DNA of 9,346 nt. Origin: a virus. Its lineage: Duplodnaviria > Heunggongvirae > Uroviricota > Caudoviricetes. Numbering within the stretch: the first letter of the stretch is position 1; the number at the start of each line of letters is the position of its first letter. Positions 1,337 to 9,346 of the stretch are shown piece after piece. The DNA lies in the IMG/VR virus record IMGVR_UViG_2706794670_000010. One strand, given 5' to 3'. The notes under the pieces were generated by a model, which saw nothing but the letters and a program-made list of their open reading frames with translations, made no database searches and was not told the origin of the DNA. The translations under genes were made by a program, and so were the position numbers.

Positions 1337-1530
1337 TATTCACCTCTGTGAGTTGCAGCAGCAATTTGGGCAATAATTTGTTCCATTTCCGCCATTACCT
1401 CATCATGCGGAATCGCCGGGCGGGGATCCGCGAGGCTTGCTGCTACTTTGGCCCGCAGCCATTCGTTGTAACTATTTTCTTGCTCAACTGTCTCAAATTC
1501 TGAAACCATTGGGGAAAGGACTGTACTCAT
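1336..1530 (-). CDS. cognate antitoxin (ParD-like / CC2985-type addiction-module antidote, 64 aa)
   Basis: Small acidic protein (...EWLRAKVAASLADPRPAIPHDEVMAEMEQII...) immediately upstream of, and overlapping, the ParE-like gene. GAGGAG lies about 9 nt upstream of the ATG at 1530. Its start is 19 bp below the repressor stop. Confidence 0.7.
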   Translation of the reverse strand: MSTVLSPMVSEFETVEQENSYNEWLRAKVAASLADPRPAIPHDEVMAEMEQIIAQIAAATHRGE

Positions 1531-1549
1531 TTTACATATCTCCTCTGAT

Positions 1550-2050
1550 TTAGGCGCGACGGCCTTTTTGTGCAGCTAACCACCGCGCAACCGTACGATC
1601 CATTGATTCTTTTTTATCTTTCATCTCCTGAAGCATGTGTTCTTGATCTTCTTTCGGAAAAGCTCTGAACGTATGGATTAAATCTCGTTCCATCGGCTCT
1701 ACGGCAAACGGTAGTTCATCCTCTGTTTGTTCTGTGTCTGCTGGTAATGCGACTATGTTATCTTGCTGTGGTTCTCGACAATACATCCTTGCAATTTGCA
1801 GCAAATCTACCATGTCTGGCCTGATTGACTCAGGGGGAACTTTCAGTAAGCCAGCAAACTTTAGAACAGCCTCAAGGTTTAGTGGGGTTTGACCATTTAG
1901 GTAGTGACTTACCGCCCCTTGTGTTGAAAACCCCATAATTTCCGCCGCACGTTCCTGAGTCAATCCCAACTGAGATTTCTTTGCCATCCAGATTTCTTTC
2001 AGTCTTCTGGCGGCGTTGAGGTCGGTGTCTGACAATGATTTTCTTTTCAT
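1550..2050 (-). CDS. CI-like prophage repressor, Xre-family HTH, no S24 peptidase domain (RacR-like architecture)
   Basis: HTH segment LGLTQERAAEIMGFSTQGAVSHYLNGQ. It is divergent from the cro-like gene with operator palindromes in between. The first ATG is at 2050 (166 aa); the ORF-track start at 2080 is a GTG without a Shine-Dalgarno. The C-terminal region lacks the Ala-Gly/Ser-Lys autocleavage signature. Confidence 0.8.
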   Translation of the reverse strand: MKRKSLSDTDLNAARRLKEIWMAKKSQLGLTQERAAEIMGFSTQGAVSHYLNGQTPLNLEAVLKFAGLLKVPPESIRPDMVDLLQIARMYCREPQQDNIVALPADTEQTEDELPFAVEPMERDLIHTFRAFPKEDQEHMLQEMKDKKESMDRTVARWLAAQKGRRA

Positions 2051-2084
2051 ACATCCAATTCTAATAAGATTGCTAATCACTTTG

Positions 2085-2125
2085 AAATAGTATCACTATT
2101 TACTTTTAAAAATAACAGTGCTATT
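2085..2125. promoter_or_regulatory. OR-like operator region: palindrome AAATAGTATCACTATTT (2085-2101) and related site AATAACAGTGCTATT (2111-2125); candidate rightward promoter -35 TTTACT (2099-2104) and -10 TATTAA (2122-2127)
   Basis: Inverted repeats read directly from the 111-bp interval between the divergent repressor and cro-like genes; centres are 25 bp apart. The promoter hexamers are weak matches with a 17-bp spacer. Confidence 0.45.
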
Positions 2126-2161
2126 AATTATGCATTGGTAACACATCACATAGGGCGGATT

Positions 2162-2425
2162 ATGAATCTTGGAGAATATTTGCATCATTTTCATATAACC
2201 CAGAGTTCATTTGCTGAGATTGTTGGCGCATCCCAAGGGATGGTCAGCCACGTTATAACGGGGCGTGCAAAACTTACAGGAGAAAAAATATTACGTTGGT
2301 GTGAAGCAACGGGATGGGTGGTGACCCCACATGAGATTGACAGTAAAACCTACCCCAACCCAACTGACGGCTTGCCTGCTGAGTTTCAGGCTAACACACA
2401 ACCATCGGCGGGGGTTGATTCATGA
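2162..2425 (+). CDS. Cro-like / YdaS-like HTH regulator (~87 aa)
   Basis: HTH segment SSFAEIVGASQGMVSHVITGRAKLTGEK. It is the first rightward gene opposite the repressor. ATG at 2162 is preferred over the in-frame TTG at 2135. Its stop overlaps the next start as ATGA. Confidence 0.7.
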   Translation: MNLGEYLHHFHITQSSFAEIVGASQGMVSHVITGRAKLTGEKILRWCEATGWVVTPHEIDSKTYPNPTDGLPAEFQANTQPSAGVDS

Positions 2426-2847
2426 AAATCAAGCATGAACACATCCGCATGGCGATGAAAGCCTGGGCGCATCCGGACGGTGAAAAAGTTCCGGCAGCTG
2501 AAATAACCAGGGTTTATTTCGAACTGGGAATGACGTTTCCGGTTCTGCATAACGACAGCAAGCACAACACGCTTTATCTCAACACCCAAAAGATTTTCCG
2601 TTGGCTGGATAAAGACACCCCTGACGCTGTTGAAAAAATTCAGGCGTTGTTACCTGCGATCGAAAGGGCAATGCCACCTCCGCTGGTGGCTCGAATGCGC
2701 AGCCACAGTTCAGCTTATTTTCGGGAACTGGTGGAGACGCATGAACGACTGGTGAGAGACGCTGATGATTTTGTCGCAGTGGCAATCGCCGGTTTCAATC
2801 AGATGAACCGTGGTGGCCCGGCAGGAAATGCTGTGGCAGTACATTGA
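2422..2847 (+). CDS. YdaT-like (CII-analogue) prophage regulator, 141 aa
   Basis: Begins MKIKHEHI..., which I recall as characteristic of the YdaT family of Rac-type prophages. It sits in the cII position and is translationally coupled to the cro-like gene. Confidence 0.65.
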   Translation: MKIKHEHIRMAMKAWAHPDGEKVPAAEITRVYFELGMTFPVLHNDSKHNTLYLNTQKIFRWLDKDTPDAVEKIQALLPAIERAMPPPLVARMRSHSSAYFRELVETHERLVRDADDFVAVAIAGFNQMNRGGPAGNAVAVH

Positions 2848-2918
2848 CTGACAATAGCCATATCGAATCGCTCCCGGCAACTCGTGAGTAAAAAGATTCG
2901 GTATCAGAAGAGGTGAGT

Positions 2919-3593
2919 ATGGCTAACGCCTGGCTCAGATTATGGCATGACATGCCAAATGACCCTAAGTGGCGAACAATTGCCAGGGTGTCAGGGCAGC
3001 CAATTGCAACAGTGATGGCAGTGTATATCCACCTCCTGGNNNNNNNNNNNNNNNNNNNNNNNNNNNNNNNNNNNNNNNNNNNNNNNNNNNNNNNNNNNNN
3101 NNNNNNNNNNNNNNNNNNNNNNNNNNNNNNNNNNNNNNNNNNNNNNNNNNNNNNNNNNNNNNNNNNNNNNNNNNNNNNNNNNNNNNNNNNNNNNNNNNNN
3201 NNNNNNNNNNNNNNNNNNNNNNNNNNNNNNNNNNNNNNNNNNNNNNNNNNNNNNNNNNNNNNNNNNNNNNNNNNNNNNNNNNNNNNNNNACAAAATGGCG
3301 ATTGTCACGGCGCGTCACGAAATGTCACGCACATGTCACGACGAGTCACGACAGATACAGATAAAGATACAGATAAAGAAGATCAAAACACTATGGTCCA
3401 TGGCGTAAAAAACGCCACGAACCAGGCAGGGGATGTTCAGACCGTCAATCCTGGTCAGCCAGCAGGCTCGACACCGGAAGCCGATTCAGCGTATGCGCTG
3501 AAAGCCGATTCGGGCGCTGTGCAGCAGGTGATGACCGCAAGGCCGGAGCAATCACTCCAACTGCAGCAGCCTGAAGCCGATTCCGCCATTCAG
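2919..3593 (+). CDS. phage replication initiator (O-like / replisome organiser), partial: interrupted by masked run 3040-3289 and running into masked run 3594-3859
   Basis: ATG at 2919 is preceded by GAGGTGAG. The N-terminus MANAWLRLWHDMPNDPKWRTIARVSGQPIATVMAVYIHLL is typical of phage replication-initiator N-domains. The frame stays open through the visible stretch 3290-3593, which holds the iterons and a low-complexity linker. The true 3' end is not visible. Confidence 0.6.
3040..3289. other. N-masked run (250 nt), sequence unknown
   Basis: Run of n characters. ORF-track proteins crossing it are X-filled and uninformative. Confidence 1.
3304..3377 (+). repeat. candidate replication-origin iterons inside the initiator gene: GTCACG x5 phased at 10-11 bp (3304, 3314, 3324, 3335, 3345), then 12-bp direct repeat GATACAGATAAA x2 (3354-3365, 3366-3377)
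   Basis: Read directly from the sequence. Helical-period phasing of a short motif followed by an A-rich stretch inside the initiator gene parallels the lambda arrangement, where ori lies within O. The upstream extent is hidden by masking. Confidence 0.55.
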
Positions 3594-3859
3594 NNNNNNN
3601 NNNNNNNNNNNNNNNNNNNNNNNNNNNNNNNNNNNNNNNNNNNNNNNNNNNNNNNNNNNNNNNNNNNNNNNNNNNNNNNNNNNNNNNNNNNNNNNNNNNN
3701 NNNNNNNNNNNNNNNNNNNNNNNNNNNNNNNNNNNNNNNNNNNNNNNNNNNNNNNNNNNNNNNNNNNNNNNNNNNNNNNNNNNNNNNNNNNNNNNNNNNN
3801 NNNNNNNNNNNNNNNNNNNNNNNNNNNNNNNNNNNNNNNNNNNNNNNNNNNNNNNNNNN
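3594..3859. other. N-masked run (266 nt), sequence unknown; hides the end of the initiator gene and/or the start of the helicase-loader gene
   Basis: Run of n characters. Confidence 1.
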
Positions 3860-3898
3860 TGTGAATCATATTTCTGAACCGGATACCGAAATTCCGCC

Positions 3899-3919
3899 NN
3901 NNNNNNNNNNNNNNNNNNN
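3899..3919. other. N-masked run (21 nt)
   Basis: Run of n characters. Confidence 1.
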
Positions 3920-3921
3920 CT

Positions 3922-4386
3922 GACGAACTGATGACCGGGTGCACGAATTTTGTGTTCAGCGGTAAAACCGGCACCGGGAAAAATCACCTTGCAGCGGCGA
4001 TGGGTAACCGGCTGATGGCGAAGGGGCGCAGCGTGATTATCGTCACCGAGTCTGATGTCATGAGCGTGTTGCATGACAGCTACGACAACGGCAAATCCGG
4101 TGAAAAATTTTTACAGGAGCTTTGCGGGGTTGATTTGCTGGTCCTGGATGAAATAGGCATTCAGCGGGAGACGAAAAACGAGCAGGTGGTATTGCACCAG
4201 ATAATTGATCGCCGGACAGCATCACTGTGCAGTGTCGGGATGTTAACAAACCTGAATCATGCCGCAATGAGCACGCTTCTTGGTGAGAGGATTATGGACC
4301 GCATGACCATGAACGGTTGTCGGTGGGTGACGTTTAACTGGGATAGCTGGCGTTCAAATGTCAGCTTTCCGGGAGTTGTGAAGTAA
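3922..4386 (+). CDS. DnaC-like helicase loader (IstB-like AAA+ ATPase), C-terminal ~155 aa visible; 5' part lies in masked sequence
   Basis: Walker A FSGKTGTGKNHLAAA and Walker B LLVLDEIG, and the visible stretch follows my recalled DnaC sequence closely. The frame is open upstream into the N-run, and ATG at 3931 would sit only 10 residues before the Walker A, so the real start is upstream. Stop at 4384-4386. Confidence 0.8.
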   Translation, partial: DELMTGCTNFVFSGKTGTGKNHLAAAMGNRLMAKGRSVIIVTESDVMSVLHDSYDNGKSGEKFLQELCGVDLLVLDEIGIQRETKNEQVVLHQIIDRRTASLCSVGMLTNLNHAAMSTLLGERIMDRMTMNGCRWVTFNWDSWRSNVSFPGVVK

Positions 4387-4407
4387 TTTTTGTTGGAGGA
4401 TGTTTTA

Positions 4408-5133
4408 ATGGAAACTGTATTTGACGCACTGAAAGCACTGAAAAGAGCCTCTTCACATGTGGTGGCGTCCCGCCTTGGAATCAGCCGTGAAGATGCGGTC
4501 AACGAACTGTGGAAACTGAAGCGCCGTGGTGAAGCGGATAACAAGGGTTCGATGTGGTGGCTGATTCAGGCTGGTGAAAGTGAACCAGTGTCACCGGTAC
4601 CGAAAGTGACAGCGCAAATGCTGACTGAGGCGATTGAACAACATGGCCCACAAACGGCGGATGAGCTGGCACTGATGTTCGGGATTACCTCCCGCCGGGC
4701 GAATTCATCGCTGGCCATGGCAATCAGCAAAGGGCGTCTGATTCGCGTGAATCAGGGCGGTAAATTTCGGTACTGCATACCGGGCGCTGATTTACCGGCA
4801 GAGCCGAAAGCCGCATCCATAGCGGAAACGGATGGTAAAGTCTTTCCTCAGCCAGCAGGTGTTGCGTTACCGGTACAGGAAGCTGCAACACAGGAAGAAA
4901 TTAAAACAGAAACTGTGGCGGACATTGTGCAGTCGTTGCCATCGTTCACCGAAACGCAAGCGGATGACCTGGTTTTACCATCGCTGCATATGGCAAACCG
5001 CGAACTGCGTCGGGCGAAAAGTCATGTCCAGAAGTGGGAGCGTGTCTGCGCCGCGTTGCGGGAGCTGAACAAGCACCGGGATATTGTTCGACAGATTGTC
5101 GATTCCTCCGGTCGTATTGTGTCGGAAAAGTGA
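4408..5133 (+). CDS. hypothetical phage protein, 241 aa, two tandem winged-helix-like segments plus acidic linker and helical C-terminus
   Basis: GGAGGA lies 7 nt upstream of ATG 4408; the ORF-track start at 4390 is a TTG. Segments [22 protein letters not shown] and [28 protein letters not shown] look like wHTH recognition regions. Family not identified. Confidence 0.6.
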
Positions 5134-5148
5134 TTGCCGGGGGCGCTT

Positions 5149-5571
5149 ATGGCAAAAGTATTTACACAGGAAGAGCGGGAAAAAATTAAGGGGCAGGTTG
5201 TTGAACTCGTACGCCAGAGTGGGCGCGAGACGTTACGACAACTGGAAGCTAAAACCGGGGCGACAAGATATTTAATAAGCGTTCTCGCCAGAGAGCTGGT
5301 TGCCAGTGGGGATGTATACAACTCTGGCTACGGGTTATTCCCGTCTGAACAGGCTCGTAAGGACTGGCAAAACGCCCGCAAAAAACTCTCGAGGGCAAAG
5401 CTGAAGAAACCATCTGTGGTTGATCCGGACCTTATCTGGTCATTACCGGACGGAGAAATACGCCGCTACGACAGACATCAGAACATAATCTGTCGCGAGT
5501 GCCGGAAGAGTGAAGTTATGCAGCGTGTACCGGCTTTCTATCAGGGTGATTTTCAGGAGGCGGTACTGTGA
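5149..5571 (+). CDS. hypothetical protein, 140 aa, N-terminal winged-helix-like segment, C-terminal CxxC
   Basis: ATG at 5149 is preceded by GGGGG (5-nt spacer) and follows the previous stop by 15 nt. Contains ETLRQLEAKTGATRYLISVLARELVASGDV and CRECRK. Confidence 0.55.
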   Translation: MAKVFTQEEREKIKGQVVELVRQSGRETLRQLEAKTGATRYLISVLARELVASGDVYNSGYGLFPSEQARKDWQNARKKLSRAKLKKPSVVDPDLIWSLPDGEIRRYDRHQNIICRECRKSEVMQRVPAFYQGDFQEAVL

Positions 5572-5628
5572 GTGAAATTAGCTATCAGGCTTCAATTACC
5601 GCTGGCATTCGCATCAAAGGAGAGGAGC

Positions 5629-5985
5629 ATGGAAATAAAACCAGAAGATGAGTTAAGCAATATTGTTTTATTTCCGGTAAAAGAGGATAACCCTCGTAAT
5701 CAGGTTAATTTTCTTTATGAGCCATCGGAAAGACCATATTGCCATCACGCTTCTGTCCGGGTTGACGAAAAAGAGCGTCAGGTCCGCTGTAAAATTTGCG
5801 GTGCAGTTGTGGAGCCATTTGACTGGATGCTCTCTGTGGCGAAAAGAGAAACCAGACTGGCAGATGATGTAAGGCTCTTGCGCCAGGAGGAGCGGGAAAG
5901 GCGAAAAAATATAGAAAAGCTAATCCAGATTGAGCGTAATGCGAAAGCGCGGATACGCAGGGTGACAAAATATAGCCCCGAATAA
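5629..5985 (+). CDS. hypothetical protein, 118 aa, putative zinc ribbon (CHH...CKIC) with basic coiled-coil C-terminus
   Basis: Strong Shine-Dalgarno AGGAGAGGAG at 5617-5626 before ATG 5629; the ORF-track start at 5572 is a GTG directly after the previous stop. Cys/His spacing CHH-x17-CxxC. Confidence 0.55.
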   Translation: MEIKPEDELSNIVLFPVKEDNPRNQVNFLYEPSERPYCHHASVRVDEKERQVRCKICGAVVEPFDWMLSVAKRETRLADDVRLLRQEERERRKNIEKLIQIERNAKARIRRVTKYSPE

Positions 5986-6124
5986 TCAAGGTTATTTCTG
6001 GAAGTCAAGTCGTGAGTGATGAGGACTAACAAATACGGTGAACTCGATAAAGAGATTCAGGACGAACTGGAGGCCAGGAATGATTGACAAATCACCAAGT
6101 GAGTTCAGCTACAAAGATTTATTG

Positions 6125-6140
6125 TCATAACGGGTTATGA
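6125..6140. promoter_or_regulatory. perfect inverted repeat TCATAAC-GG-GTTATGA upstream of the methyltransferase gene (possible operator or RNA hairpin)
   Basis: Read directly from the sequence, 60-110 bp upstream of the candidate methyltransferase starts. Function is not established. Confidence 0.2.
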
Positions 6141-6199
6141 GATCGACTTGGTGCGTGATATTCTTCGGGCCAGTTTGCTATGCGCCACCATGAGATGTT

Positions 6200-8032
6200 A
6201 TGGCCCGCATGTTTGATACATTAGGATTTTACATTATGAATGTGCAACATTTTGATTTTTTTACAGATAATGAGTTTTCTAATCTGGAAAGATATCAAAC
6301 TTGTAAAGCCATGGCCAAAGGTTATGCGGGCAATTACAAAACCGGGCAGTCAAGGTTGATGCATGCCCGCTCATACTGCTTCAGCATCGTAGCTGCATAT
6401 TGGGATACCCTTGCAAAAAAGCAAAAAAGCAGCATTAAAATGAGGGCAGTACCGCACACTGTTTACATAGAAGACATTCCATGTGATGCACGCGAGCTCG
6501 CTGAACGAACAGGTGAGCTTATTGCTCAATTTCCGGCGGAGGACGCTGGATATCTGATTGGGTCAATTTATACGGTAATGCTGCCATCCGCTTACCGTTC
6601 GGAATTGGGGGCTTACTATACCCCCCCACCTTTGGTAGCGCGTCTCTTGGACCTGGCTGAAAAGTCTGGTGTTGATTTTTCTCATGCATCGGTTATTGAT
6701 CCTGCGTGTGGTGGCGGTGCATTTTTGGCACCAGTAGCCATTCGAATGTTAAAAAAAGACAAGGGGTCTTCCCCTGAATGGATGTTGAGGAGAATCAGTC
6801 GTCGTTTAAAGGGGATAGAGATCGATCCATTTGCGGCTTGGATGAGTTTGGTATTGCTCGAATCTGTACTAATGCCACTATGTGTAAAGGTAAAACGTAG
6901 ATTGCCTGAAGATACAATTATTGTTGCTGATGCGCTTCAGCAAGATAAATTTTCTGGTTATGATCTTGTGGTAGGGAATCCGCCTTACGGACGTGTCACT
7001 CTCGATATTAAAACGAGAGAAAAATATTCTCGTTCGTTATTTGGTCATGCAAATCTATATGGATTGTTCACCGACTTAGCTGTTCGCATGGTTAAAGAGA
7101 AAACAGGAGTTATTGCATTTCTTACGCCAACTTCTTTTCTTGGTGGGCAGTATTTCACCGCGCTGCGAACCCTTTTGACCGAAAAAACTACTCCGTATGC
7201 CCTTGATTTCGTCACTGACAGGGATGGGGTCTTTGACGATGTTCTCCAGGAAACAATGTTGACAGCATTCAAGGCGGGAGAACATAAAGTTCGGGCCCAG
7301 GTATCCTCACTTGTCCCTAAGGGGTTGAACAAAGCAAAAATTGAGAAAATAGGTAATGTTGATATAGAAAAAGGTGGAGCAACGTGGCTTTTGCCACGCG
7401 TTAAAGATGATGCCTGTTTTCTTAATGTATTAAAACAGATGTCTACGCGTTTAGCTGATCTGGGATACTCAGTCTCTACAGGTCAGTTAGTCTGGAATCG
7501 ATTTAAGTCGCAGTTGCGTACGACGAAAGGAAAAAATAGCTACCCATTAGTCTGGGCGGAATCAATAACTTCAGCTGGTTTTCGTTTTAGTGCAGACAGA
7601 AAAAATCATGTTCCCTATATCGATATAACCCCACAACAGGGTTTCCTTGTGACAAAATCTGAATGTGTGCTTGTTCAGCGGACAACATCGAAGGAACAGG
7701 ACAGAAGGATTTTAGCGGCAATTTTACCTCAGGGATTTATAGATGAAACTGGTGGCGTAGTAGTTGAAAACCATATTAATATTGTATATTCAAACGGATT
7801 GTTCTCTGCGGTTCGCCCTGATGTTATTGATATGCTACTTAATTCGCATGTTGTCGATCGGGCGTTCAGGTGTATAAGCGGAAGTGTTGCTGTTTCGGCC
7901 TATGAATTGAATTCAATCCCGTTGCCTTCTCTGGAGCAGGTGATGGAGATTCAATCGTTAATTGATGCTGGCGTCCACAGACGGATTATTGAGAGAACTA
8001 TCGCTGGTTTCTATGGAGTGATGATTGCATGA
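6200..8032 (+). CDS. gamma-class N6-adenine DNA methyltransferase (Type II R-M modification subunit), 598-610 aa
   Basis: Motif order YYTPPP (motif X), then DPACGGGAFL (motif I, AdoMet binding), then VVGNPPYG (motif IV, NPPY), then a long C-terminal target-recognition region. Start is ambiguous: ATG at 6200 or 6209, or ATG at 6236 with AGGA 9 nt upstream. Stop TGA at 8030-8032 overlaps the next ATG. Confidence 0.85.
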   Translation: MARMFDTLGFYIMNVQHFDFFTDNEFSNLERYQTCKAMAKGYAGNYKTGQSRLMHARSYCFSIVAAYWDTLAKKQKSSIKMRAVPHTVYIEDIPCDARELAERTGELIAQFPAEDAGYLIGSIYTVMLPSAYRSELGAYYTPPPLVARLLDLAEKSGVDFSHASVIDPACGGGAFLAPVAIRMLKKDKGSSPEWMLRRISRRLKGIEIDPFAAWMSLVLLESVLMPLCVKVKRRLPEDTIIVADALQQDKFSGYDLVVGNPPYGRVTLDIKTREKYSRSLFGHANLYGLFTDLAVRMVKEKTGVIAFLTPTSFLGGQYFTALRTLLTEKTTPYALDFVTDRDGVFDDVLQETMLTAFKAGEHKVRAQVSSLVPKGLNKAKIEKIGNVDIEKGGATWLLPRVKDDACFLNVLKQMSTRLADLGYSVSTGQLVWNRFKSQLRTTKGKNSYPLVWAESITSAGFRFSADRKNHVPYIDITPQQGFLVTKSECVLVQRTTSKEQDRRILAAILPQGFIDETGGVVVENHINIVYSNGLFSAVRPDVIDMLLNSHVVDRAFRCISGSVAVSAYELNSIPLPSLEQVMEIQSLIDAGVHRRIIERTIAGFYGVMIA

Positions 8033-9111
8033 ATCTGCCTGTTGTTCCCCCATTGAATGTTATCCGGGAAAGATTACAATTAATTTTCCCTGAAGGGACT
8101 GAGAATCGTGGATATTTAATTCGGGAAATAGCTGCAAAAACAATTTTTGTCATGTTTTATGCTGGTGCGGTTGAGGGGCTGGGGCGATGGATAAGGCCCA
8201 GCCAGGTTGTAAGTATGGGAGATTCGCAGGCTGCTCTTACTGATGATGCGTCCAGAGAAAGCTGGGTAAAGATGACTTTCTCTAAACAAAAGATAAGGCC
8301 TGCTGATGCATGGTATGCGGAAAATACGCGTGAGCCAATACGTGATGAAACTATAAAAAATGGCCTAATACCTTGCAATGCAATTGTTGAGCGTAAAGGT
8401 ATACCCACCACATCCTCTCGTCCTCGTTACAGTTTGAATCGCTCTTTTGCAGCACTCTTTGATGCCGGGCTTGAAGGAGATTCGCTGCTGAGTGCAATAA
8501 GTTCCTGGCAAGAAAATCATTTGAACAAAGCCGCTCTTGCTAGGTTGCGTTTATTGAAATCAGGGGCAGTGATTGCTGCTGATGCCGTAGTCGTCACTTT
8601 CCCAAATGGAGAGAAGAGAACTTTAGCTCCGGGCCCGTCAAGTACAATAGCTAAGGCCGTCATCGAAGTTTTTGCTCCTAATTTTCTTAAGAATCCAACT
8701 GTGCTCTGGTTGTCTGAATCCGGGAATAAAGTTGTTGCTCAGGATGATGTATTGGCAAAAGCATTGGGGCTGAATATTGATGCCTCAAAAGCACTTCCAG
8801 ATATTATTTTGATTGATTTGGGAGAGGACCGAACGGGTTCGGACATGCTTGTAGTTTTCACTGAAGTAGTTGCGACAGATGGGCCTATAAACAGGGAACG
8901 AAAAGTTACTCTCACTCATTTGGCTATTGACGCTGGGTTCAGCGAGAAAAATCTTGCATTCCTTACGGCATTTATGGACAGAAGTGCTCTGCCTTTTAAA
9001 AAGGCAATACCAGAATTGGCGTGGGGATCTTATGCATGGTTTGCTTCTGAACCGGAGCACTTAATTGATCTTCGGGATGGTTATCCGGTAAAGATCAGCC
9101 AGAGAAAATGA
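8029..9111 (+). CDS. putative Type II restriction endonuclease partner of the methyltransferase (possibly BsuBI/PstI-like; family unverified), 360 aa
   Basis: ATGA start/stop overlap with the methyltransferase and GGAG 10 nt upstream indicate translational coupling. Same AT-richer composition as the methyltransferase. I could not locate an unambiguous PD-(D/E)xK motif by eye, so nuclease identity is inferred from context. Confidence 0.55.
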   Translation: MNLPVVPPLNVIRERLQLIFPEGTENRGYLIREIAAKTIFVMFYAGAVEGLGRWIRPSQVVSMGDSQAALTDDASRESWVKMTFSKQKIRPADAWYAENTREPIRDETIKNGLIPCNAIVERKGIPTTSSRPRYSLNRSFAALFDAGLEGDSLLSAISSWQENHLNKAALARLRLLKSGAVIAADAVVVTFPNGEKRTLAPGPSSTIAKAVIEVFAPNFLKNPTVLWLSESGNKVVAQDDVLAKALGLNIDASKALPDIILIDLGEDRTGSDMLVVFTEVVATDGPINRERKVTLTHLAIDAGFSEKNLAFLTAFMDRSALPFKKAIPELAWGSYAWFASEPEHLIDLRDGYPVKISQRK

Positions 9112-9263
9112 CCAAAGTTTGATATCCGCCACGCCCTGAAGGATGGGGGTTTTACGGTGCACTGGATAAAAAATCGGTTTCATAGATTTGCCCACCGTGG
9201 TATACGCCTGCGATAAAAACTTTATTGTCATCAACGGCAAAAGCAATAATTGTTCTGTGGCGG

Positions 9264-9346
9264 GGTGATGCTGCCAACTTACTGATTTAGTGTATGATGG
9301 TGTTTTTGAGGTGCTCCAGTGGCTTCTGTTTCTATCAGCTGTCCCT
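9264..9346 (+). mobile_element. IS1 insertion sequence, left (5') end; element continues right of the window
   Basis: GGTGATGCTGCCAACTTACTGATTTAGTGTATGATGGTGTTTTTGAGGTGCTCCAGTGGCTTCTGTTTCTATCAGCTGTCCCT matches the IS1 left terminal repeat and insA leader as I recall them. Same orientation as the IS1 end at 1-103. Confidence 0.85.
9319..9346 (+). CDS. insA: IS1 InsA, N-terminal fragment (GTG start; continues beyond window)
   Basis: GTG GCT TCT GTT TCT ATC AGC TGT CCC translates to (M)ASVSISCP, the InsA N-terminus. Confidence 0.7.

Follow-up and report, generated by a model that had tools for sequence, protein, structure and literature searches.

In a stretch of Caudoviricetes DNA of 9,346 nucleotides (IMG/VR record IMGVR_UViG_2706794670_000010; hereafter the window), three genes lie between a replication module and a restriction-modification (R-M) system. 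What these genes encode, and whether their proximity to the R-M genes is relevant to their function, are the questions raised by this locus. A preliminary description treated the genes as a block of unrecognised proteins that, next to an R-M system, might regulate or counteract restriction. The three genes, here called A, B, and C, belong to the common early gene repertoire of Rac-like and lambdoid prophages, and their families are already catalogued.

The genes are carried on the same strand and are closely spaced, as had been noted. Gaps of 21 bp separate the DnaC-like gene (stop at 4386) from gene A, 15 bp separate A from B, and 57 bp separate B from C (Table 1). Genes A and B run from ATG to TGA and gene C from ATG to TAA, and all three starts agree with the annotation of RefSeq homologs (241, 140-141, and 118 amino acids, respectively). 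A GGAGG element (4395-4399) is located 8 nucleotides 5′ of the gene A start, and the near-ideal Shine-Dalgarno sequence previously remarked upon at gene C is indeed present. The flanking assignments confirm the location between replication and R-M genes. Upstream are a YdaU-like gene (2913-3923, partly N-masked) and the DnaC/YdaV-like gene, and downstream are a methyltransferase gene (6200-8032) and then a gene for a BsuBI/PstI-type endonuclease (8029-9111). Because there are strong family matches, many homologs (hundreds to thousands per gene), and low median pairwise dN/dS values relative to distinct homologs (0.23 for A, 0.115 for B, and 0.113 for C), we conclude that these are real genes and not chance ORFs. 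With dN/dS at 0.11-0.23, all three are under purifying selection.

Table 1. Coordinates of genes, predicted domains, and other features in the window.
Feature	Position	Strand	Basis or remark
Gene A, YdaW-family protein by profile match, 241 aa	4408..5133	+	Pfam DUF1627 (PF07789), PHROG 630
A, predicted N-terminal winged helix, aa 1-52	4408..4563	+	AF2 model, weak Pfam wHTH matches
A, predicted second winged helix, aa 66-124	4603..4779	+	AF2 model, Foldseek, hhalign
A, linker, aa 128-178	4789..4941	+	AF2 pLDDT below 50
A, predicted C-terminal helical hairpin, aa 182-240	4951..5127	+	AF2 helices 182-203, 207-240
Gene B, Ren-family protein by profile match, 140 aa	5149..5571	+	Pfam DUF977, PHROG 142; 'LygF' in phage records
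B, predicted winged helix, about aa 10-64	5176..5340	+	DUF977 fold assignment, hhalign to A; bounds approximate
B, C-terminal Ren signature, aa 107-131	5467..5541	+	Y..N.IC.ECR.S..M.RV.AFY
Shine-Dalgarno AAGGAG of gene C	5617..5622	+	Sequence reading; 6 nt 5′ of ATG 5629
Gene C, zinc-ribbon/long-helix protein, 118 aa	5629..5985	+	PHROG 1621
C, conserved N-terminal peptide, aa 5-16	5641..5676	+	Consensus TExELSNVVxFP
C, predicted zinc ribbon, CxH...CxxC	5740..5799	+	Ligands C38, H40, C54, C57
C, predicted long basic alpha-helix, aa 63-115	5815..5973	+	AF2 single helix, pLDDT 84-95
Left junction of R-M cargo	5990..6000	.	End of homology to R-M-free prophages

The profile searches proposed in the preliminary description yield strong family matches for all three proteins, and none of them is unrecognised: A matches DUF1627, B matches DUF977/PHROG 142, and C matches PHROG 1621. 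Structure prediction had also been proposed, and the AlphaFold2 (AF2) models made of A and C agree with the domain layout. The fold guesses offered earlier were sound, with a pair of winged helices in A, a single one in B, and a zinc ribbon in C. None of the three matches an NCBIfam family, PDB sequence searches with A, B, and the C profile return nothing below E 0.3, and comparison with PADLOC models reveals no defense system (one stray match for A at 0.0099, and none for B or C).

By its profile matches, the gene A product is assigned to the YdaW family (DUF1627/PHROG 630). PF07789 matches over its full length (profile positions 1-155 of 155) at an E value of 5.9e-93 and a score of 309.2 bits (cutoff 28.1), and phrog_630 matches at 1.7e-121. 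The protein is 99-100% identical to proteins of Shigella sonnei and shares 57% identity over aa 1-151 with YdaW (b1361) from the Rac prophage of Escherichia coli K-12. YdaW resembles A in its DUF1627/PHROG 630 membership, in having both winged-helix domains, and in its position after ydaV, and the K-12 gene order ydaU-ydaV-ydaW is the order found in the window. However, K-12 YdaW is only 186 aa long and does not have the conserved C-terminal hairpin, whereas A is the intact form of 241 aa. The K-12 protein is truncated because the Rac deletion joins its gene to rzpR/trkG.

The AF2 model of A (pLDDT 63) is based on an alignment of close relatives only (at least 82% identity), and its moderate confidence is due to the fact that a deeper alignment was thereby precluded. 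In the N-terminal domain, helices are modelled at aa 4-11, 16-23, and 27-39 together with a wing (pLDDT 72-84). This domain gives weak Pfam winged-helix (wHTH) matches to DUF5817_CT and HTH_Crp_2, and phrog_16668 spans aa 1-58. The second domain is modelled with helices at aa 69-79, 84-91, and 95-107 and a beta hairpin at 112-123, and it aligns with the winged helix of B and Ren (hhalign E 5.9e-5, probability 65%). When the PDB is searched with this model by Foldseek, only generic winged helices are identified (MarR/ArsR/ScpB/AlkZ-type), the best match being a structural-genomics protein at E 1.2e-3. The low-confidence linker is probably disordered. The C-terminal hairpin carries a nearly invariant block of 20 residues and lies in a region (aa 170-241) spanned by a separate family, phrog_29124; perhaps it serves in dimerization.

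By its profile matches, gene B encodes a member of the lambda Ren family (PHROG 142)/Pfam DUF977. PF06163 matches over the entire profile (2.2e-30; 105.9 bits, cutoff 22.1), and phrog_142, which is labelled 'Ren-like exclusion protein', covers aa 1-139 at 2e-46. Lambda Ren also matches phrog_142 (1.6e-41), and B and lambda Ren are 50% identical in a direct BLASTP alignment of 20 aa (E 1e-5). Kinch et al. (2009, PMC2686095) recognized DUF977 as a winged helix with HHpred/COMPASS. An N-terminal winged helix is likewise present in lambda Ren. The two proteins also share a C-terminal motif, N-x-I/V-x-x-E-C-R-x-S-x-x-M-x-R-V-x-A-x-Y, wherein N112, E117, C118, R119, S121, M124, and R126 are invariant in a family alignment that includes lambda Ren. 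Furthermore, lambda ren is located directly after the replication genes of the rightward early operon, in the order O-P-ren. In relatives of the window, gene B comes after ydaV, P, or O, either directly or with gene A between. The analogy drawn previously to the accessory region that follows the replication genes of lambdoid phages is thus well founded, given that B is related to ren, the gene directly after P.

Beyond the C-terminal 20 residues, however, B and lambda Ren resemble each other only remotely (24% identity overall). Lambda Ren has 96 aa whereas B has 140, with about 40 extra residues in B that separate the winged helix from the C-terminal motif, and Ren, unlike B, has no score against Pfam DUF977. 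Much closer are the 'LygF'/DUF977 proteins encoded by prophages of Salmonella and E. coli, to which B is 90-95% identical with no difference of substance. Records of relatives label B homologs as LygF or DUF977, and a representative-library search with B returns 102 clusters, many of which are fragments. Searches of the literature for 'LygF' recover name usage only, and those for 'Ren-like exclusion protein' recover no functional study. The name LygF carries no function.

The gene C product matches phrog_1621 over aa 1-115 (1.1e-54), which is a family without an assigned function. Its 150 homologs across Enterobacterales are every one annotated as 'hypothetical', and no Pfam family scores above its cutoff. 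Among 37 sequences, all four of the predicted zinc ligands are invariant. In the N-terminal peptide, which is modelled without regular structure, F15 and P16 are invariant, and conservation is 90% or more at T5, E6, E8, L9, and N11. The AF2 model places a beta hairpin at aa 43-54, and the subsequent long helix carries the highly conserved sequence LRxEExxRRxNIEKLIQIERNAKARIRR and might form a coiled coil.

The closest resemblance of C in both Pfam and Foldseek searches is to TFIIB-type zinc ribbons, which share a four-ligand ribbon with a beta hairpin. However, C differs from TFIIB in its CxH...CxxC ligands and in having a 50-residue basic helix after the ribbon rather than cyclin folds. Identification of C as a TFIIB zinc ribbon (PF08271, Zn_Ribbon_TF) was rejected, as the match of 21.6 bits falls below the gathering cutoff of 29. 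No Foldseek match of the C model to the PDB or BFVD is significant; the best is the TFIIB N-terminal ribbon 1pft (E 0.68), accompanied by coiled-coil noise. The resemblance between C and TFIIB is limited to a small metal-binding knuckle.

The preliminary description had regarded the three genes as one block, and it had recommended a survey of their co-occurrence among prophages. That survey reveals that the genes are separable. Among 74 viral contigs anchored on gene B, B occurs alone in 21, A-B in 21, B-C in 19, and the complete A-B-C arrangement in only 13. The genes therefore assort independently, with A and C coming and going around B, and a fixed three-gene operon is rejected by this independent assortment. 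Across 5426 complete E. coli genomes, full-length matches (at least 80% coverage) to A, B, and C are found in 809, 3891 (about 72%), and 1671 genomes, respectively. In prophages that lack any R-M system, the same genes are found behind ydaV-type or P-type replication genes. In other Enterobacterales, C is located elsewhere, just upstream of Q.

These distributions bear directly on the proposed relationship with restriction. The block physically adjoins the R-M genes, and in all four R-M contexts that were found, gene C is directly 5′ of the methyltransferase gene, with an identical spacer of 214 bp. However, the linked C, methyltransferase, and endonuclease genes are at least 98.8% identical in nucleotide sequence among these contexts, which indicates a single recently shared segment, and the linkage thus counts as one event. 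Because the R-M contexts share this segment and C is common without R-M, C was rejected as a dedicated R-M partner. In comparison with the genome counts above, the R-M system is found in only 2 of the 5426 genomes, and it is carried by 1 of 80 B-anchored viral loci. Moreover, alignments with R-M-free prophages end at position 5989 (L028, L004, and L005) or 6000 (L003), whereas those with the R-M-bearing relatives L030, L107, and L108 run on to 9263. Since homology with R-M-free prophages ceases 4-15 bp past the gene C stop codon, the R-M system is cargo that was dropped into a variable slot.

Searches of A, B, and C against Pfam (E values up to 1) and NCBIfam also reveal no R-M controller/HTH_3 or anti-restriction family, and there is no match to an R-M controller, to ArdA/ArdB/Ocr-type proteins, or to a PADLOC model. 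The spacer (5986-6199) was examined for repeats and small ORFs, and it contains one 8-nucleotide inverted repeat, nothing like controller-protein boxes, and no promoter-like site. A restriction-linked role is unsupported by these findings, and we consider it extremely unlikely. The R-M system is a rare, unrelated cargo inserted just after gene C, and the adjacency is incidental.

If not restriction, what might these genes do? A promoter scan of positions 4200-6400 detects no promoter-like site, although this was a crude consensus search that could miss weak or non-sigma70 promoters. Over the same interval, no terminator is found on the plus strand, and the terminator-like sites on the minus strand occur only at chance level. 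In the literature, DUF1627 is mentioned for its synteny, in a 2026 preprint that locates PasA/PasC near DUF1627 genes. Comparison of the whole window with Rfam reveals no RNA family, and hence no Pas-type sRNA is present in the window. Most likely, A, B, and C are co-transcribed with the replication genes and are early-lytic accessory proteins.

We consider it fairly probable that A, B, and C are separate early genes of Rac-like/lambdoid prophages, each mobile on its own, and that they encode early-lytic accessory factors, with B and A as leads for counteracting abortive infection. The genes immediately follow the replication genes, apparently as part of the rightward early operon, and their transcription would begin only once the prophage repressor is lifted. 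Early in the lytic phase, their products would then serve as small nucleic-acid- or protein-binding accessory factors rather than in protecting the lysogen. By family analogy, B would most likely function as Ren does, allowing a replicating phage to escape Rex-type abortive infection. Ren shields a phage from exclusion and does not exclude other phages, and Toothman and Herskowitz reportedly observed in 1980 that Rex excludes ren mutants of lambda. To our knowledge, lambda Ren provides the only phenotype in the family of gene B. According to Thomason et al. (bioRxiv 10.1101/2021.04.19.439022), pR drives the transcription of ren together with O and P, and the Rex proteins make two-hybrid contacts with O and Ren.

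Perhaps A counters defense likewise, because ydaW of K-12 was among the prophage blockers of the retron toxin RcaT (Bobonis et al., bioRxiv 10.1101/2020.06.22.160242). The ydaW result is a screen hit obtained with the truncated K-12 protein, and it may be indirect, for example if a DNA-binding protein lowered toxin expression. For C, metal-dependent binding and probable oligomerization via its helix can be proposed, and no further activity is assignable. A more ambitious proposal is that the three are independent early-lytic counter-defense proteins that occupy a swappable anti-abortive-infection slot. B would act against Rex-type systems, full-length A against retron-type toxins, and C as a zinc-ribbon inhibitor whose conserved N-terminal peptide might dock on a host or defense protein. 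We regard this proposal as rather doubtful.

Another explanation is that A, B, and C are the phage's own replication or transcription accessory factors. As DNA-binding proteins with winged helices or a zinc ribbon, they would modulate the firing of the origin, the loading of the helicase, or early/late transcription, and would play no part against host defenses. In every context seen, the genes are directly behind those for the initiator and helicase loader, A and B are predicted winged-helix proteins, and Thomason et al. describe ren as 'likely involved in DNA replication'. The location of C just upstream of the Q antiterminator gene in other Enterobacterales, together with its weak resemblance to a TFIIB-type ribbon, fits with this explanation, as does the listing of K-12 YdaW among predicted transcription factors (PMC9308461). 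However, for each of the three genes there are many related prophages that do without it, which is ill-suited to a core replication function, and the sequence and Foldseek searches match no known initiator, loader, or regulator fold specifically. The sole known phenotype in the family, that of Ren, concerns exclusion rather than replication yield. On balance, we judge a purely replicative or transcriptional role to be possible but somewhat unlikely.

The genes might alternatively be prophage exclusion genes that guard the lysogen from superinfecting phages. The PHROG 142 label, which is categorized as moron/host takeover, and a region rich in accessory cargo (TA modules and the R-M system) both point in this direction. 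However, the label is a name and not a test, and Ren saves the phage from exclusion. The genes also lack a match in PADLOC and a promoter-like site of their own, and they are within a repressed early operon. A role in lysogen defense is therefore very unlikely.

The families of A, B, and C are already known, and their members are standard components of Rac-like/lambdoid prophages. Their remaining interest derives from the fact that such genes are extremely common in E. coli, with B present in nearly three-quarters of complete genomes. Given the reported contacts between Ren and Rex and the recovery of ydaW as a blocker hit for a retron toxin, a counter-defense role lends itself to direct and cheap testing.

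The window comes from a Rac-like/lambdoid enterobacterial prophage and represents its immunity and early-right region. Genes A, B and C (a YdaW-type gene, a relative of lambda ren and a zinc-ribbon gene), described in preliminary work as having no assignable family, are already known families found at their usual prophage site. Profile searches place A in Pfam DUF1627 (5.9e-93) and PHROG 630 (1.7e-121), B in Pfam DUF977 (2.2e-30) and PHROG 142, 'Ren-like exclusion protein' (2e-46), and C in PHROG 1621 (1.1e-54), a family that carries no function label. Homologues are annotated accordingly in GenBank phage records (ydaW/DUF1627 for A, LygF for B) and in RefSeq E. coli genomes ('DUF1627 domain-containing protein', 'DUF977 family protein' and, for C, 'hypothetical protein'). 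Deposited, annotated sequences match the three proteins at 92-100% identity, the nearest relatives of A being Shigella sonnei proteins (99-100%); PDB sequence searches with all three gave no match. The ORFs and the sequence confirm the tight packing noted earlier, with gaps of 21, 15 and 57 bp around the genes and AAGGAG 6 nt 5′ of the start of C. Because median dN/dS values are 0.23, 0.115 and 0.113 for A, B and C (pairwise against distinct full-length homologues), these are real protein-coding genes under purifying selection.

Features of the window and domains of protein A
Feature	Position	Strand	Basis or remark
ParE toxin	1046-1336	minus	PF05016 1.8e-17
PaaA2-type antitoxin	1336-1530	minus	PF21217 3e-23
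HTH repressor	1550-2080	minus	profile match
Cro-like gene	2135-2425	+	profile match
YdaT	2422-2847	+	profile match
YdaU-like replication gene	2913-3923	+	profile match; broken by three masked N runs
N runs	3040-3289 (250 bases), 3594-3859 (266), 3899-3919 (21)		mask parts of YdaU-like gene and 5′ third of DnaC/YdaV-like gene
DnaC/YdaV-type helicase loader, C-terminal two thirds	3931-4386	+	profile match
Gene A	4408-5133	+	241 aa
A winged helix 1	aa 1-52		AlphaFold2 model
A winged helix 2	aa 66-124		AlphaFold2 model
A low-confidence linker	aa 128-178		AlphaFold2 model
A helical hairpin	aa 182-240		AlphaFold2 model
Gene B	5149-5571	+	140 aa
Gene C	5629-5985	+	118 aa
Eco57I/HsdM-like adenine methyltransferase	6200-8032	+	profile match; 610 aa
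BsuBI/PstI-family endonuclease	8029-9111	+	profile match; 360 aa

The loader ORF aligns to positions 98-248 only of the 248-residue loader model, and its true start is therefore hidden within the masked stretch. On the minus strand, the PaaA2-type antitoxin and ParE toxin genes lie directly 3′ of the HTH 'repressor' gene. Because E. coli O157 prophages carry a similarly arranged three-gene module, paaR2-paaA2-parE2, the HTH protein may be a PaaR2-like regulator, in addition to or in place of the prophage repressor. At the other end, 9264-9346 holds a terminal inverted repeat (GGTGATGCTGCCAACTTACTGATTTAGTG...) that, going by an annotated match, is that of IS1. The stretch gave thousands of IS1 matches across E. 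coli genomes, and similarity to related prophages ceases at 9263. The element sits in a RelE/ParE toxin gene, which in those prophages comes after the endonuclease gene.

The model of A has a mean pLDDT of 63 (72-85 in its domains), and Foldseek returned generic winged-helix proteins only (MarR, ArsR, ScpB and AlkZ types; best E 1.2e-3). In hhalign, its second winged helix pairs with the one in B (E 5.9e-5, probability 65%). YdaW of the K-12 Rac prophage (b1361) is a truncated homologue, 57% identical across both N-terminal domains but without the C-terminal part present in A. For B, a winged-helix fold had been assigned to DUF977 earlier (PMC2686095). PHROG 142 also takes in lambda Ren (1.6e-41), which has the invariant C-terminal family motif in common with B and occupies the equivalent site, directly after P. 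However, unlike B, lambda Ren is below the reach of Pfam DUF977, and the two are only 24% identical overall, so the relation is remote but consistent.

The alignment of C comprises 37 sequences from E. coli, Salmonella, Klebsiella, Kluyvera, Erwinia, Serratia, Yersinia and others. C38, H40, C54 and C57 are invariant, the N-terminal peptide TExELSNVVxFP is conserved and the basic C-terminal helix is strongly conserved. The model (pLDDT 74.5) has a small beta hairpin followed by a single helix (aa 63-115); structural searches of PDB and BFVD gave no significant neighbour, and the score against the TFIIB zinc-ribbon Pfam model was under the cutoff. For C, the assignable properties end at predicted metal binding and probable oligomerisation. 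Because the models, the DUF977 assignment and the C alignment with its invariant ligands agree, the earlier guess of two winged-helix-like proteins and one zinc ribbon was right. The earlier description of where the genes lie was also correct. In five homologues (P0006, P0010, P0043, P0039 and P0041) the C family is fused to Ea22-like (PF13935) or DUF977 sequence, and strain VL7S7 has an Ea22-like gene whose sequence overlaps the 5′ end of C. Such cases probably arose by recombination or as artefacts of annotation in a highly mosaic region. Near-identical copies of C (93-94%) on short contigs labelled Collinsella MAG and Ursidibacter maritimus (L010, L017) most likely stem from E. coli prophage DNA that was mis-binned or came in as contamination.

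The three genes do not form a fixed block. Both flanks were available in 74 of the 80 IMG/VR loci anchored on B, which carried B alone (21), A-B (21), B-C (19) or A-B-C (13), close to expectation for independent presence of A and C. A-B without C occurs in Rac of strain 442/2, B-C without A directly 3′ of O in vB_EcoS-640R1, and A-B-C 3′ of a lambda-P-type loader. In one-genome-per-species data, C adjoins B in Escherichia and Shigella only. In various other genera, among them Erwinia, Yersinia, Phytobacter, Photorhabdus and Leclercia, its place is the far end of the nin-like region, between a NinG-like or HNH-like gene and the Q antiterminator gene; the latter begins just 3′ of C, and stop and start codons often overlap. 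Viral contig L028 carries at 7200-8420 another DnaC-like/B/C set, located about 3.7 kb 3′ of the first (75-99% protein identity), which points to related prophages in tandem or side by side, or to a join made during assembly.

The neighbouring restriction-modification (R-M) genes, which overlap by 4 bp, had led to the proposal of a restriction-related role, and this is unsupported because A, B and C are common without them. Megablast against 5426 complete E. coli genomes matched A in 2396 (809 with at least 80% coverage), B in 4051 (3891) and C in 1679 (1671); most of the R-M segment, for which a count of any match was not applicable, was present in 2, and R-M genes occur in 1/80 of the B-anchored loci. 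The window is a recombinant mosaic of two prophage backgrounds, with the exchange inside B-C. Outside the N runs, 1499-5989 is 99.5-100% identical to L028, which is without R-M genes, and 5145-9263 is 98.8% identical to another viral contig (L030), in which the replication gene is O-type and gene A is missing. Because homology with R-M-free prophages ends at 5989-6000, just 3′ of the C stop codon, and the R-M-bearing relatives have one recent segment in common (left ends at 5145, 5293 or 5599), C serves as the homology arm on the left side of a slot for variable cargo. Elsewhere this slot holds DUF7167, Ea22-like, HNH, DUF4014 and other small genes, and its right border is a ParDE module. The R-M cassette (within 5990-9263), which is rare, is always between C and this module, inside the prophage early operon. 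The 214-bp spacer between C and the methyltransferase gene lacks any promoter-like site, and its sole inverted repeat is 8 nt long. C stands 5′ of the methyltransferase gene in all four R-M contexts, but these go back to a single inherited event and do not count as independent support. A link between A, B or C and the R-M genes is not supported.

A scan of 4200-6400 found no promoter-like site and no plus-strand terminator-like site. Because, in addition, every gene from 2135 on has the same orientation with short gaps, A, B and C would be co-transcribed with the replication genes once the repressor is removed, and would then act early during lytic growth. Rex is reported to exclude lambda phages mutated in ren (Toothman and Herskowitz 1980). 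On the best-supported reading, all three genes encode small accessory proteins of the early phase, of which B, and possibly A, shields replicating phage from abortive-infection systems. Rex proteins contact O and Ren in two-hybrid assays (Thomason et al., bioRxiv 10.1101/2021.04.19.439022), and K-12 ydaW is one of the prophage genes listed as blocking, when overexpressed, the toxicity of the retron-Sen2 toxin RcaT (Bobonis et al., bioRxiv 10.1101/2020.06.22.160242). The main rival is a wholly phage-internal role in the control of replication or transcription; ren, which pR transcribes together with O and P, has been called 'likely involved in DNA replication' (Thomason et al., bioRxiv 10.1101/2021.04.19.439022).
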